Positions 4,764 to 64,000 are shown, counted from the first letter of the stretch. The stretch is 64,000 bases of DNA from Eledone cirrhosa (GCA_964016885.1 CAXHJY010001659.1:1-64000); one strand, 5' to 3'. Program-made: numbers and translations. The notes: a model not told the origin generated them from the sequence alone.

Positions 4764-4804
4764 TCACTGAGGAGATCACAGAATGTGTGACGAAAGAGCT
4801 TTGA
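4764..4804 (+). ncRNA. Type I hammerhead ribozyme motif (GTCACA-stem family, copy 1)
   Basis: TCA CTGAGGA GATCACA gaatg TGTGAC GAAA GAGC TT TGA. Confidence 0.65.
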
Positions 4805-5356
4805 CAATATATAAACAACCACCCGGTTATCGAACCAACCAATCAACCAACCAGCCAACCAACCGGAAATTTATAATAAATTGAAGTGAAAACCACAGGT
4901 GTGTCTCTTTTTGTTGGCAGCATGGCCCTCCCAAAGTATAGCAATATCTGTTTCAACACACGTTTTCAGATAAGAAATCTTGCAAAGCAAATTCAAAAAT
5001 GATGTATATATATATATATATATTTTCCCCTACTATATCTAGCGTAAAACTAATGATATATTTTTTCATTGTACTGTTTCGTTTGCTTTGTATTTCTGTT
5101 TGTCTTTTGTATATACTGTATATATATATATATGGTCGGGATTTTACATCTCTCTCTATATATATATATTTTGTCTGGTGATCCTGTGAGTACACAGGTC
5201 AAACTACAAAGTAACAAGAATCTACTTCGGTATTAAGTACACATTCTCAGTCCGTCAACTTTATACGGACACACACACACACACACACACACACACACAC
5301 ACACACACACACACACACACACACACACACACACACACACACATATATATATATAT

Positions 5357-6520
5357 ATAAGAAAGTAAGTCCATAGAATCATTTGATAAAATCTATACAG
5401 TATTTCTCCTCCCAATCAGCATAATCAACCACATAAAAAAAATCAATTAAACGAGGCTATAAGTTTAAAATGTACCTATGAAGAAACAATAGTAAATAAA
5501 TGATAGCTATTTTATCCGCCATCCACGGCCACAGATTTACCTAGTATTTCTAATAGCACGTAGAAATTGACTAGACATATAGCTAACCATACACAATTAG
5601 GTACAAAATCAAAGTTAGAAGAAAAATGTAGATACACGTACCAAAATTATGTTTCTAACCCCGAAGGTTTCATTTGCTTTTTGGAAATATCCGATCATGG
5701 ATAAATCAACGAGTTTCGAAATCACCAGGAAACAAACTCAATTGGACAAAGATTTTTCTTAAATGATCCCCGCCAGAAACAAATTCAAAATGGCTAATAA
5801 TTGTCACATGGCCAGTGGTCAAGTCAGAAAGCTTGTGATTGGTGCCTGACGGCGAGTAGGCTGGCTGCTAGAAAGCGCAGCCGAATACTGCCTAAAGTTT
5901 TACTCAACCTTACGGGAGTATATAAAATATAGAGGTTTACATATACATAAACTAGACAGAGCCATATATATATATATATATATATGTTTTTGGCAACCAT
6001 TCACGGTGTGGCTCAATGACGAATTAATTAATTAAATATTCAACAATCAGAGCAATATATAAGAAAGTAAATCTATAGAATCATTTGATAAAATATATAC
6101 AGTATTTCTCCTCCCAATCAGCATAATTAACCGCACAAAAAATCAATTAAACGAGGCTATAAGTTTAAAATGTACCTTTGAAGAAACAATAGATAAATAA
6201 ATGATAGCTATTTTATCCGCCATCCACAGCCACAGAAGATTTACCTAGTATTTATAATAGCCCGTAGAAATTGACTAGACATATAGCTAACCATACACAA
6301 TTAGGTACAAAATCAAAGTTAGAAGAAAAAAATGTACATAAACATACCAAAATTATGTTTCTACCCCCTGAGATTTCATTCGCTTTTTGGAAATATCCGA
6401 TCATGGATAAATCAACGAGTTTCGAAATCATCAGGAAACAAACTCAATTGGACAAAGATTTTTCTTAAATGATCCCCGCCAGAAACGAATTCAAAATGGC
6501 TAAGAATTGTCACATGGCCA
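5357..6520 (-). mobile_element. Partial-tandem HHR element (period 706), retrozyme-like
   Basis: 5358-5814 is duplicated at 6060-6520. Each copy holds a minus-strand HHR (5650-5734 and 6356-6440). TA flanks. Confidence 0.7.
6356..6440 (-). ncRNA. Hammerhead ribozyme motif
   Basis: Reverse complement: TGTTTC CTGATGA TTTCG...CGAAT GAAA TCTCAGGGGG TA GAAACA, with a 6-bp stem I. Confidence 0.65.
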
Positions 6521-6528
6521 TATATATA

Positions 6529-6683
6529 TAACGAAGGAAGTGTGGTAAGGAACCAGGTGGACCATAACGCACCATAGTACTTGATACTTAGGTTAGTAGA
6601 GTGGGTATTAGGAAAAGAGTCAGGAGCCCGACGGCTGAGCTCCGGCCGTTTCGACGCTCAACCGTCGGACTCCTGACTCTTCC
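6529..6683 (-). mobile_element. Short fold-back element family H (copy 1 of 6) carrying the 3' half of an HHR
   Basis: Homologous to 13132-13324, 18083-18255, 31568-31712, 44098-44234 and 53160-53355. Contains GAAACGGC-loop-GCCGTC. Confidence 0.75.
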
Positions 6684-61073: not shown

Positions 61074-62265
61074 TGGTGGCTGCCAACTCGTTTTCGAGTA
61101 CGACCACTACTTTATATCCATGTAGGAGAACCCCTACCGATGCGTTGAACGAGTGTGACATTTTAGTCCAGCCAGCGACTTGAAAACTCTGGTACAAACA
61201 CTACACCTGTGACAATTATTGACACATAGTGCTGGGCCCATGGTACCATGTGACGACAAGTGCAGAGAGCTCTCCAGATATAAAGCAATGCCTGTGCTGT
61301 GAAGCTTTTATAGTGAGCAAAGGCACTGCACAAAGCCAGTCCCACTCTCTTAACCAAGATGATATTTACCAAAAAGAAGAACAAGTCAACATCATTGGAT
61401 ACCATCAGAGTTGCAGGTGTTATATCAGAGTTTTCCTTCCCCTAGAATTCTGCCTTGACAAAGGCTAAGGGTTCATCTCTCCCGGTGATTTTGGATGGCC
61501 ATTGACTCTTAAGAGCTCCTTTGCCCTTTTGACGGGTTTTGTTTTTAGTCCTGCAGGATGTCCAAAGTCACCCTCCTCACCAAGAAACCTTGGTGGGGTT
61601 GCCAGTTTAGTCGCCAACGACGCGACCATGAGACAGGTTGTACTGGGATACATGTTACCAGTAGCACCAACTGGTGACCTGACATAATATACATACATAC
61701 ATACATGGTGGCTGCCAACTCTTTTTCGAGTACGACCACTACTTTATATCCATGTAGGAGAACCCTTACCGATGCGCTGAACGAGTGTGACTTTTTAGTC
61801 CAGCCAGCGACTTGAAAACTCTGGTACAAACACTACACTTGTGACAATTATTGACACATAGTGCTGGGCCCATGGTACCATGTGATGACAAGTGCAGAGA
61901 GATCTCCAGATATAAAGCAATGCCTGTGCCGTGAAGCTTTTATAGTGAGCAAAGGCACTGCACAAAGCCAGTCCCACTCTCTTAACCAAGATGATATTTA
62001 CCAAAAAGAAGAACAAGTCAACATCATTGGATACCATCAGGGTTGCAGGTGTTATATCAGAGTTTTCCTTCTCCTAGAATTCTTCCTTGACAAAGGCTAA
62101 GGGGTCATCTCTCCCGGTGATTTTGGATGGTCATTGACTCTTAAGAGCTCCTTTGCCCTTTGAAAGGTTTTGTTTTTAGTCCTGCAGGATGTCCAAAGTC
62201 ACCCTCCCCTCCAAGAAACCTTGGTGGGGTTGCCAGTTTAGTCGCCAACGACCCGACCATGAGAC
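61074..62265 (-). mobile_element. Two head-to-tail copies of family J separated by (CATA)n
   Basis: 61074-61683 and 61705-62265 are homologous to 14022-14597. Confidence 0.8.
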
Positions 62266-62396
62266 ATACATACATACATACATACATAGAAACATACATA
62301 CATACATTCATTCATACATAGTTAAACAAATATACAACACGAAATACGATGTTAAATGATGTTCAGAAACGTCTAAGGAATCGCGCCGCGTAATTA

Positions 62397-62585
62397 ATTG
62401 TTTCTACTTTTAGCACAAGGCCAGCAATTACCCAGTGCATTACTGGTACTTGAATTTATCAACCCCGTAAGGATGAAAGGCAAAGTTAACCTCGGCGGGA
62501 TTTGAACTCAGAATGGCAAGGGCCGTAACTCTGTGCGTCAAAGCATGGCGTCCGTCCCTCTACCGATACTGCCAATCCACCGCAC
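62397..62585 (-). mobile_element. tRNA-derived SINE
   Basis: Reverse complement of the 15731 family. Confidence 0.78.
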
Positions 62586-62735
62586 CTCGTAATTAATGTA
62601 TACTGTTCACCTACATATACTAATACACTAAGCATAGCGGTCGAGAGCACTTTTCCTTGTGATATCTTGTGTGTATCAATACATTATTTATAACTGTCAT
62701 ACACAATCTAAACAATATAATTATATATATATATT

Positions 62736-64000
62736 CTTTGAAGCCTTAGAGAAGAACGTCCCACCCAACCATAGGTATAGGAAAATCCTTAATAGGAACA
62801 ATATAAAAATATCCTTCTCTACTACTCCTAACCTAGCGGACATCATAGGAACGACTAATCACATTAAGATCATCAAGACACAGCACTTTAGGACAGGCGC
62901 ACCTACACCTGAAAATAACTATATAGGCCTTAACGACTCCCTAGCAGCATCCAATAGTGCTGGCAACAGCCTCTACTGACACAACCAGCATAACCGCGAC
63001 ATGACTGGGGAATATGCAGGTGACCCGCACGGGTCACCAGGCGGCAAAGGAAGACGATGCTGCGTGCGGAATAATAATGGTACCGCCCCGCGCACTGTGG
63101 GTTGTAATGGTGCTAACGACAGGTGTGGGAGCGTAGGTAACAACGTAGTTCGCAATAATAATAGCCTTACCGTGGGAACTAGAAGGGACCGCGACTGAAA
63201 TTGCAACTGCCGCGACAGGGGACGCTTCCCCCTTAGGGGAACCTGCTTGACTTATAGGGTTATATATAGGTGCACTGTAACTATCCACAATAACGTTAAA
63301 CATTATGTAGGGGCTACCTCTGGCCCGTTCAAAATTAGGTTTCGAAAACATCTCCACTCTTTCGCAAATAAGAAATTAAGACACTCCACTTCGCTCGCGA
63401 ACTACATCACATCATTAAAAGACTTAAACATCAGCTTCTCCACGCACTGGGAAACTGTCGGCAGGGCTGCACCGTACAACTTCAAGAGGAAGTGCGATCT
63501 TTGACTCATGGAGCTCTACCACATCATAACGGCACCCCACGAGCTCATCAACAGCAGAGCTGAATCGACGATAAGCTGTACACACTGCTTAAAAATATCC
63601 TACTTCAGATGGAATAAGAACGAGGAGTGAAACAGTATACCGGGCGGGCAGGTGCTGCAAAAAACATCCGGAAACTAACCGGCTTCAATTGACCCAGGCA
63701 GGCAGGTGCAGAAAAAAAAGGCCTCAAAACAAACGTTGCATACCTGACACTGTGGTATCGACTATGGTAAGGTTGTAACCACATCTTGTAACGGATAAAA
63801 AAAATTTGTCCGGGAAAGAATGCCCTAACACCGGCCAGAGTTACCTCCCTTGACCTACTGCAAAATCAAAACACGCTTCTTTGCGAAAAATGAACTCTGA
63901 CGTGAACTTATCTCTAAAAACACATTCCGGGCTGTGTAAGGAGTACTTTTTAGTTATTTATGCTCTTGAGAAGCCCATTCGGGCGAAACGTACGTAGGTG
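62736..64000 (+). mobile_element. 5'-truncated Naiad-like Penelope-like element (GIY-YIG region + 3' HHR), running off the window
   Basis: PPNHRYRKILNRNNIKISFSTTPN, CNCR..PLRGTCL..VIYRCTV..YVGATSGPFKIRF..H..SF, CDL*LME..IN.RAE...C.H; TA run at the 5' edge. Confidence 0.8.
63961..64000 (+). ncRNA. Minimal hammerhead, U3-A8 variant
   Basis: TTGAGAA GCCC attc GGGC GAAA CGTACG TA, with palindromic ACGTACGT stem III. Confidence 0.72.

Follow-up and report, generated by a model that had tools for sequence, protein, structure and literature searches.

Hammerhead ribozymes of coding Penelope-like elements and of non-coding tandem units at (TA)n tracts in the Eledone cirrhosa genome

Hammerhead ribozymes (HHRs) in the pseudo-LTRs of metazoan Penelope-like elements (PLEs), together with a U3-A8 variant of the core, were described by Cervera and De la Pena (2014, PMC4209133), in whose available text these minimal motifs are reported to cleave poorly. 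PLEs of the Hydra clade insert into (TA)n and carry HHRs, among them Hydra-1_Obim of Octopus bimaculoides (Craig et al. 2021, PMC8557442); in a literature search confined largely to papers outside subscription, this was the only relevant report on hammerhead ribozymes in octopus. Non-LTR retrozymes of animals are known from Cervera and de la Pena (2020, PMC7229834) and from Li, Clavereau and Pollet (2026, bioRxiv 10.64898/2026.07.22.740005); the accessible part of the latter records cleavage in one of nine retrozyme dimers and calls the route of these elements into DNA open. For the Anolis element PAc Poseidon, the available account of in vitro work reports that reverse transcription is initiated where homology to the cut DNA is lacking, and that HHR cleavage is dispensable (PMC11167929). 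A curated repeat annotation of Octopus vulgaris reports 893 recently active unclassified SINE families, and the word 'ribozyme' occurs zero times in its main text (PMC13282606); HHR elements may therefore be hidden under other labels. The two classes of element that we describe here from Eledone cirrhosa are both of published kinds (Cervera 2014, 2020; Craig 2021; Li 2026).

The window is a stretch of 64,000 nt (GCA_964016885.1, CAXHJY010001659.1:1-64000), for which an earlier note had proposed a dense population of HHR-bearing, non-coding retroelements inserted in (TA)n, with 19 sites listed as well formed and 12 as degenerate. A strict type I descriptor, which accepts a minimal or palindromic helix III, a helix II no longer than 130 nt and, besides the usual core, its U3-A8 variant, identified 12 motifs in the window; 20 local dinucleotide shuffles averaged 0.3, and the reversed window yielded none. 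When a single core mismatch was tolerated, 14 motifs stood against 1.4 in eight shuffles. Eleven of the 12 strict matches are sites of the earlier note, and the remaining one, at 60267, is new. The core of the site previously placed at 6356 actually lies at 6434 on the minus strand and passes the strict descriptor. Requiring a full helix III left one motif in the window and missed all others. Rfam returned no match in the window at the gathering score, and at E<=10 the hammerhead family was absent among the 150 of 424 matches listed, where only microsatellite-driven miRNA appeared. In 98 random 10-kb pieces of the genome, 104 strict matches were found versus 5, 12 and 7 in shuffles, and 31 of the 104 are located in three arrays. 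Motif density is far above the shuffled controls, with a 40-fold excess in the window and a 13-fold excess over the 980 kb. The strict density is one per 5 kb in the window and one per ~10 kb in the random pieces, and the genome-wide estimate is ~3x10^5 strict motifs (1.7-4.4x10^5); the density of one per 2-3 kb given earlier holds for a relaxed count within the window only.

A relaxed per-site parser, whose null (n=150) has a 99th percentile of 8.2 and a maximum of 10.2, gave values of 8.7 or higher to 14 sites in the 'well-formed' group of 19 and to three in the 'degenerate' group of 12. The other five well-formed sites fall below this value; one of them is 6356, which the strict descriptor accepts. 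The motifs at 11673 and 12131 have a bulged long helix II, with helices I and II present in the predicted fold (z -3.5) and two strict copies in the family; at 20744 helix I comprises just 2 bp and the site lies within a PLE repeat; at 63961 helix I is weak but better in copies of its family. In ~2 Mb of this genome used for comparison, 29 of the 31 listed sites are multi-copy or have a diverged homolog, whereas 9778 and 29972 are single-copy and are candidate motifs. The listed sites fall into at least 18 families, in line with the more than a dozen unrelated ones claimed before, and four further families (N, O, X at ~11200 and Y) can be added. An alignment of 48 BLAST-picked copies of family K has 96% of its cells paired, compared with 34-44% in slid controls. 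Changes on both sides occur at 10 of 23 pairs, a value matched by 0 of 500 shuffles; the count reflects a small number of subfamily changes that numerous copies have inherited, and helix III itself displays no covariation. The motifs thus possess the type I architecture, a conserved core (CUGANGA or U3-A8, GAAA, NUH) at a three-helix junction, and in family K the helices are maintained by compensatory change. Judged from sequence, the hammerheads are confirmed as real and very abundant, and their cleavage activity is predicted. The U3-A8 core was considered as a novelty and dismissed, as it is already contained in the accessible text of PMC4209133.

Nine of the 19 well-formed sites are situated at the ends of coding PLEs of Neptune or Hydra type, nine in non-coding tandem units of 430-760 nt, and one may belong to either class. 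Families A, C, F, G, J, M and P, as well as the newly added Y, lead into RT/GIY-YIG open reading frames (ORFs), and 9/19 well-formed sites are therefore truncated ends or pseudo-LTRs of coding PLEs. This decides for most families a question that the earlier note had left standing, and restricts its label 'non-coding' to families B, D, E, H, I and K. The ORF is linked to the HHR with no TA run between them in 32/59 copies of A, 39/91 of P, 10/30 of J, 10/169 of Y and 2/70 of C. RT followed by a C-terminal GIY-YIG within one ORF, as expected of EN+ PLEs, was found, with weak Pfam scores: GIY-YIG is at or just below the cut-off in A and G (at the cut-off in the ORF of family A locus L012), and there is no Pfam match for P. 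Coverage extends to the endonuclease end alone for C, J and M, and to the RT end alone for F.

Among the families of putative Neptune type, G is represented by a decayed, near-complete PLE on the plus strand (20223..25632) that ends on (TA)n. It comprises a 5' pseudo-LTR (20223-20856, HHR at 20747), a frameshifted RT (22164-23385), a Zn-finger linker with GIY-YIG (23594-24007; GIY-YIG E 5e-4, below cut-off) and a 3' pseudo-LTR (25055-25632) with a degenerate HHR at ~25520; the two pseudo-LTRs share 92.8% identity over 459 nt. The element at 20.2-25.6 kb had been overlooked, its 5' pseudo-LTR having been listed as site 20744. Family F, close to G by tblastx, contributes the pseudo-LTR end of a coding element (19410..19560, minus strand, core 19516) and a degenerate relative at 16857 (plus). 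A coding-PLE 3' end of family A begins where the GIY-YIG ORF ends and continues to (TA)n (17239..17854, minus, HHR core 17501), and further copies lie at 4714-5002 and 54201-54518 (both plus). Family C forms an inverted pair of PLE 3' ends with the U3-A8 core (10372..10725; cores 10477, minus, and 10554, plus), with a third copy at 17868-18070 (minus) and a related lineage, C2, at ~52940-53130 (plus); its locus L040 continues into a Neptune-type endonuclease ORF. The CX2-5CxxC linker is present in G, C and A; as Nematis has a similar one, the assignment to Neptune is tentative, and for A uncertain.

Hydra-type features (a CxCX5C linker, an endonuclease lacking CCHH, (TA)n and an HHR) were recognized in J, P and Y from translations compared by eye with the published description and alignment excerpts; family M, assigned from tblastn matches, is probably of this type. 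The 3' end of J (32990..33172, plus, core 33012) has an 82-nt helix II and, in this copy, U4C; that of P spans 1510..1710 (plus, HHR core 1644). Family M consists of ORF remnants (62731-62871 and 63199-63591) followed by a U3-A8 HHR at 63966 (62731..64000, plus), and terminates on (TA)n ~60 nt past the window end. The Y 3' ends, new to this analysis, lie at 6531..6690 (minus), with other fragments at 13134-13322, 18085-18255, 31569-31711, 44098-44234 and 53171-53353. Copies of Y are cut within helix II, frequently with an inverted arm, and a C3/A8 mismatch is seen in 7/7 core-retaining copies, four of which are segmental duplicates. Inverted copies occur in A, C and Y, and two 3' end sites in A, C, D and P.

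Elsewhere in the genome, family F recurs as HHR-to-HHR deletion units of 400-470 nt. At ten loci, sequence from the region where the ORF starts is joined to the final 50-73 nt preceding the hammerhead; the junctions differ from locus to locus, and their positions are biased by the query used. Seven loci retain the ORF. F was tried as a stand-alone retrozyme and rejected: its 426-nt tandem is a deletion form of a coding PLE, with a fold z of -0.4. The joining of a PLE 5' UTR to the 3' end by internal deletion, seen repeatedly in F, is a likely route to a non-coding unit. The recurrence of such short units from one Neptune family is possibly new.

In families B (36 copies), D (63), E (26), H (53), I (34) and K (90), none of the 302 copies has a PLE ORF upstream or homology extending into any ORF. 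Their units carry one type I HHR each and repeat at 706 nt (B), ~460 nt (D), ~757 nt (E), 629 nt (H), ~430 nt (I) and ~540-556 nt (K), with few tandem examples for B and E; the longest Met-ORF measures 27-65 aa. Predicted circular folds reach z values of -2.8 to -8.7, versus -0.8, -2.2 and +1.2 for three PLE 3' UTRs (12 shuffles each). By sequence and predicted fold, these six families would qualify as retrozymes: tandem HHR units, neither coding capacity nor LTRs, and a putatively highly self-paired unit. Target-site duplications are not discernible inside (TA)n at their loci. In the window we located B at 5360..6520 (minus, cores ~5730 and 6434), with a diverged relative of 73-74% identity at 52021-52406 (plus); D, a 458-nt unit with the two HHRs 11673 and 12131, at 11599..12246 (minus); E at 12340..13075 (plus, core 12774, ~97-nt helix II); I at 30852..31545 (plus, core 31264); and an inverted pair of K at 53490..54180 (cores 53740, minus, and 54043, plus), a family that elsewhere forms a 556-nt array of at least 10 units. 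A long helix II was discarded as a marker of the non-coding class, as J and Y are coding with a long helix II and I is non-coding with a short one.

Family H is found at 57668..58300 (plus, core 57979, 41-nt helix II, 8-bp helix III) and as an older copy at 25645-26468 (core 26145). One exact 629-nt junction recurs in arrays of 1-3.5 units on 14 or more contigs and many chromosomes, and the copies are ~100% identical. The 629-nt spacing was seen 23 times, and partial units have 37 5' starts scattered over the unit and a single common 3' end. None of the 37 starts falls within 5 nt of the cleavage site, and copies beginning at that site are hence rejected for H. In two sequencing contig sets compared with H, X1 has a very high repeat depth and X4 one dominant variant; neither informs on expression.

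Further families complete the window. The HHR of family L (60680..60820, plus, core 60697) belongs to a ~520-nt block with an internal duplication, for which neither an ORF nor an HHR-to-HHR tandem was seen in 20 loci. Two families are absent from the earlier note: N, an inverted pair with U3-A8 cores at 60267 (minus) and 60508 (plus; 60153..60628), and O, a 616-nt tandem with degenerate cores at ~33345 and ~33960 (33192..34021, plus), spaced 510-520 nt at other loci. Families R (19694..19812, site 19718, and 52671, minus), T (36365, minus) and V (56470) are degenerate and multi-copy. The window also harbours an intact L1-Tx1-type LINE at 44482-49884.

Coding and non-coding classes share a common anatomy, that of PLE insertions as the earlier note had it: the 3' end sits on (TA)n at one or two fixed positions in each family, the 5' end is truncated to a variable extent, and inverted arms occur. 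At the family 3' end, 202 copies adjoin a TA run versus 57 others, which bears out the proposed (TA)n targeting. A TA microhomology of at least 3 nt (3-7 nt, inside the element just beyond the 3' end) accompanies 11/13 end sites versus ~8% of internal positions, a test biased in that starts anywhere in a TA-like stretch merge into one apparent end, with family E offset by one base and the entry for I a spurious match to a different family. The position of 3' ends just ahead of this internal microhomology is possibly new; no direct match on PLE microhomology in target priming emerged from a search covering mainly non-subscription papers and preprint main texts. Truncated 5' ends pile up in helix II in Y (96/137), H (10/37) and partly P and J. 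As a general rule this fails, since A, C, I, K and D lack such a pile-up in their BLAST ends, which may reflect subfamily divergence.

Several other explanations were weighed. The view that the motifs are chance matches in AT-rich, hairpin-rich repeats draws on the empty Rfam result at the gathering score, on parser values of 8-10 at ~1% of shuffled positions and on the single-copy sites 9778 and 29972; the 40-fold and 13-fold excesses, the covariation of the helices and the placement of motifs in PLE pseudo-LTRs, as in the literature, refute this for the motif set. Chance is an explanation that we give practically no weight, apart from those two sites, where it may hold. Alternatively, every family could consist solely of truncated 3' ends or of pseudo-LTR tandems from coding PLEs, with the non-coding units as one-off deletion products without independent propagation. 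This draws on the eight families proved coding, on F, whose apparent 426-nt tandem turned out to derive from a coding PLE by deletion, and on the fact that each homology search scored no more than 40 candidates. We nevertheless consider it very improbable, and already unlikely for H, K and D, given the exact H junction in near-identical arrays, the long K array, the 0/302 ORF links in six families and the better folds of the non-coding units relative to PLE UTRs.

The non-coding units could also be satellites spread by unequal exchange or rolling-circle extrachromosomal DNA, or the products of a non-PLE LINE such as L1-Tx1, with the hammerhead as an inherited relic. Long head-to-tail arrays, which hold 31/104 random-sample matches, and the intact LINE in the window speak for such an origin. 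Dispersed copies, however, are built like those of coding PLEs, with a 3' end fixed on (TA)n, 5' ends that vary and arms in inverted orientation; the helices are preserved by compensatory changes, and neither poly(A) nor a LINE-like tail was seen; we regard this origin as very improbable. With good confidence we therefore favour the reading in which type I HHRs belong to two classes, coding-PLE pseudo-LTRs and non-coding 430-760-nt retrozymes, both likely inserted by Penelope-type RT/GIY-YIG enzymes through nicking of (TA)n and priming on RNA.

In the model that we propose, these enzymes probably nick (TA)n for both classes, and the nicked 3' end would pair with an internal TATA/ATAT, where reverse transcription begins. 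In non-coding elements, copies span 1 to ~3.5 units across the cleavage site with no pile-up there, and the template would accordingly be either circular or an uncut multimer. As helix III is short and palindromic, the hammerheads would cut mainly as dimers and release unit-length RNA. Given that minimal PLE HHRs cleave poorly (PMC4209133) and one of nine dimers was cleaved (Li 2026), as far as the available texts report, many of the present motifs may be poorly active or inactive. More tentatively, and with somewhat less than even confidence, the ~300,000 HHRs in dozens of families may expose a full retrozyme life cycle: birth by PLE deletion (F), self-cut RNA circles with a long helix II, priming of (TA)n ends on TATA/ATAT followed by rolling round the circle, and present activity of H. 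If true, the priming rule would be unlike that of the one PLE examined in vitro, and (TA)n targeting would be accounted for without a sequence-reading endonuclease alone. On the favoured reading of two PLE-inserted classes, a sizeable repeat class of the E. cirrhosa genome is PLE-driven. The set offers an unusually rich natural collection of HHR variants (U3-A8 and C3/A8 cores, helix II inserts of 40-125 nt), and the very young family H, the shared ends, the TA microhomology and the F deletion units are concrete material for testing retrozyme insertion.

Compared with the PLE HHRs in the available text of PMC4209133, the motifs here have the same short palindromic helix III, unpaired base ahead of helix II and U3-A8 variant, and likewise are mostly single motifs from truncated PLEs or opposite-strand pairs 100-700 bp apart. 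Unlike there, helix II inserts of 40-125 nt are frequent, and the ~3x10^5 motifs obtained with our own descriptor compare with ~2,000-9,000 per genome; ~300,000 exceeds the published counts that we found. As in the Hydra clade described in PMC8557442, families J, P, Y and probably M combine a C-terminal GIY-YIG lacking CCHH, the CxCX5C linker, an HHR near the 3' end and (TA)n; they differ from that account in comprising several further families, in 3' UTRs of 0.7-1.1 kb and in family Y, mostly cut in helix II and with a C3/A8 core. G, F and C, and A by its linker, resemble Neptune (CX2-5CxxC linker, PMC8557442) in an RT with a DKG-like motif, a Zn-finger linker, GIY-YIG, HHR pseudo-LTRs and microsatellite targets, although A could be Nematis-type instead.

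The non-coding families share with retrozymes, as presented in the accessible texts of PMC7229834 and Li 2026, non-coding tandems in which every unit holds one type I HHR, a low GC content, circles predicted to be self-paired, and coexistence with PLEs, from which an origin has been proposed. Their units of 430-760 nt are longer than the 150-450 nt of PMC7229834 and lie within the 51-972 nt of Li 2026. Unlike published retrozymes, they are mostly dispersed insertions of 1-3 units, with PLE-type inversions, (TA)n targets and a long helix II. With PAc Poseidon, going by the available part of PMC11167929, the elements share an internal start at two neighbouring sites (a tail signature), an AT-rich target and an uncut RNA template; whereas its start sites lack homology to the cut DNA, those here precede 3-7 nt of sequence matching (TA)n.

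Across the window the GC content is 30-40%, two retroelements excepted, and 123 tandem-repeat rows were recorded, chiefly (TA)n and (CA)n; the contig that holds it measures 67 kb, in an assembly of 3.0 Gb and 1796 contigs. The composition suggests that the genome may be octopus-like. Rfam at gathering score gave no match anywhere in the window. With a strict type I descriptor of the hammerhead ribozyme motif (HHR), in which helix III may be minimal and palindromic, helix II may be long and the core may be of the U3-A8 type, we obtained 12 motifs, where 20 local dinucleotide shuffles averaged 0.3, and 11 of these 12 coincide with sites of the earlier note, which had listed 19 well-formed and 12 degenerate hammerheads. 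Likewise, 98 random 10-kb pieces (980 kb) contained 104 motifs versus 5, 12 and 7 in shuffles, confirming that the motifs exceed shuffled background. Three tandem arrays account for 31 of the 104; extrapolation to the genome yields 2.9x10^5 motifs (bootstrap 1.7-4.4x10^5), or 2.1x10^5 if arrays are collapsed, and motifs are about 1.8 times as dense in the window as in the average random piece. About 9,000 minimal motifs are given for Xenopus in PMC4209133, and the literature lists 126,247 for axolotl, both counts resting on descriptors that differ from ours. Further copies or a diverged homologue were found for 29 of the 31 listed sites; those at 9778 and 29972 had no additional copy or homologue among the loci compared.

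Stem covariation was evaluated in family K, using 48 copies chosen by BLAST rather than by structure (51 distinct copies, less three with long indels). In this alignment 96% of helix cells are paired and both sides have changed in 10 of 23 pairs, counts that derive from few subfamily changes; none of 500 shuffles reached this level, and slid structures pair at 34-44%. Compensatory change is present in this family. Core covariation is also seen inside one family group, where related HHRs at two loci (L137:252-301 and L019:175-225) differ by lineage, one having C3-G8 and the other U3-A8.

The genome was searched with 12 families or their extensions, 40 candidates per query being scored, and coding sequence of Penelope-like elements (PLEs) was mapped across all loci using local baits. 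The description of the carriers as non-coding retroelements stands for nine of the 19 well-formed sites, which lie in non-coding units, whereas nine others sit on coding PLEs; 60691 (family L) was placed in neither class. Among the degenerate sites, four (1644, 10444, 52982 and 16857) belong to coding lineages, two (5650 and 52021) to the B lineage and four (19718, 52671, 36365 and 56470) to multi-copy families assigned to neither class, leaving 9778 and 29972 as candidate motifs. Families N, O, R, T, V and X, like L, were placed in neither class. Families A, C, F, G, J, M, P and Y extend into a PLE ORF, whereas no such ORF was found upstream of B, D, E, H, I and K in 302 copies.

Family A continues into an RT-GIY-YIG ORF in 32 of 59 copies, and family C has a Neptune-type endonuclease ~0.9 kb upstream (2 of 70 copies, one locus). 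The endonuclease ORFs reached by P, J and Y have a CxCX5C linker and lack CCHH, marks of the Hydra clade to which we provisionally assign them, and family M has Hydra-type ORF remnants immediately upstream inside the window; these clade names, Hydra and Neptune alike, reflect motifs judged by eye rather than tree placement. According to PMC8557442, nearly all Hydra-clade PLEs insert into (TA)n and bear hammerheads, and Hydra-1_Obim is listed with both traits. Family G (20223-25632) is a decayed near-complete Neptune-type element with pseudo-LTRs 92.8% identical, and family F is the pseudo-LTR of a related PLE. Past the window end, contig bases 64001-67256 hold additional HHR families, together with two RT/GIY-YIG fragments that are related to family A and form an inverted pair.

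The non-coding families form hammerhead-to-hammerhead repeat units (H, 629 nt; B, 706; D, 458; K, about 540-556; E, about 757; I, about 430), in which the longest Met-ORF encodes 27-65 aa and the predicted circular folds have z-scores of -2.8 to -8.7. Copies of family H are 99-100% identical across at least 14 contigs and span 1 to about 3.5 units, with a single common 3' end and dispersed 5' ends. Family K takes two forms, inverted insertions with two arms and an array of at least 10 units. Family X, of neither class (10832-11558, minus strand; 11 matches among the loci compared), repeats in tandem a 614-nt unit that contains the 3' half of an HHR and, near 11200, a damaged core. In two random pieces of contig C3 we observed a classical 310-nt retrozyme-like satellite with a strict HHR per unit, in 17 units (L213) and 5 units (L220) and in both orientations.

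A link between the classes is suggested by family F. At 10 loci the region around the ORF start, positions -39 to +25 relative to the ATG, is fused to the 50-73 nt that directly precede the hammerhead, yielding units of 400-470 nt from hammerhead to hammerhead; the junctions vary, their positions being favoured by the query used. At 7 loci the sequence continues into the ORF. Internal deletion is a likely route from coding PLE to non-coding unit.

Other repeats share the window. A LINE at 44482-49884 (plus strand), presumably of the L1-Tx1 clade, is apparently intact, with a 643-aa ORF1 and a 1150-aa ORF2 containing APE, RT and zf-RVT domains; a 3' fragment 5 kb off (54520-55795, minus strand) is 82% identical to it. 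A tandem unit of 560-630 nt (14020-14596, 56727-57141 and 61074-62266; 96-97% identical) borders on (TACA)n, not (TA)n, contains no HHR by the descriptor and is a separate microsatellite-targeted element. Numerous copies of a SINE-like repeat, 150-200 nt long (15725-15924, 36891-37092, 42175-43189, 62395-62583 and others), cluster, up to four in tandem. No HHR was detected in a 590-nt repeat with internal duplications (1895-2472 and 37956-38529; 88% identical).

Coding and non-coding classes have a PLE-type insertion anatomy in common, which PMC8557442 describes as 5' truncation, partial tandems, an inverted arm and a tail. The proposed targeting of TA microsatellites is borne out: at 15 family end motifs, and not counting read-throughs, a TA run adjoins 202 copies and is missing from 57. 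Just past the 3' end, the element sequence itself alternates between T and A for 3-7 nt at 11 of 13 readable sites (at least 4 nt at 9 of 13), with the row for E shifted one base and that for I actually matching a different family; the internal background is 8% (at least 3 nt) or 3% (at least 4 nt). The nominal P (about 1e-10) is too small because starts within a TA stretch collapse to one apparent end; with an 8-nt start window allowed, about 1e-3 remains by our own estimate. We propose target-primed reverse transcription in which nicked (TA)n would pair with internal TATA/ATAT. Copies of family H cross the cleavage site over several units, with no pile-up of starts there (0 of 37), which argues that an uncut multimer or a circle would serve as the template. 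In the predicted folds of monomers, helices I and II are retained, and helix III is mostly swapped for inactive pairing, consistent with hammerheads that would cut as dimers.

Cleavage of many motifs may be weak or absent. In the Li 2026 preprint one of nine retrozyme dimers cleaved, and low activity of minimal motifs is reported in PMC4209133. The core of family Y counts among the reasons. This family is the most abundant (55 matches in 980 kb; 6531-6690, 13134-13322, 18085-18255, 31569-31711, 44098-44234 and 53171-53353 in the window, and loci L131, L220 and L259). Of 137 copies, 96 end within helix II, and most of these have an inverted arm whose junction lies 10-30 nt ahead of GAAA. In the few copies with the core preserved, C3 faces A8. 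Family H has a weaker excess of ends inside helix II (10 of 37).

Every component of this system is covered by prior literature: hammerheads in PLE pseudo-LTRs, with their U3-A8 variant, are described in PMC4209133, the occurrence of Hydra and Neptune elements in (TA)n in PMC8557442, and non-LTR retrozymes, from molluscs among other animals, in PMC7229834, while the Li 2026 preprint has already proposed that retrozymes originate from PLEs. Our search, which covered few subscription journals, turned up no paper on retrozymes in cephalopods and none on PLEs that prime by microhomology. Animal retrozyme mobilisation becomes testable through the scale of the motifs, the TA microhomology, the deletion units seen in family F and family H, which is very young; this goes beyond routine annotation. 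An Anolis element (PMC11167929) displays internal initiation, a two-site tail and a non-homologous start site in vitro; the priming proposed here would share the internal initiation and the two-site tail, and would differ in that the start pairs with (TA)n.
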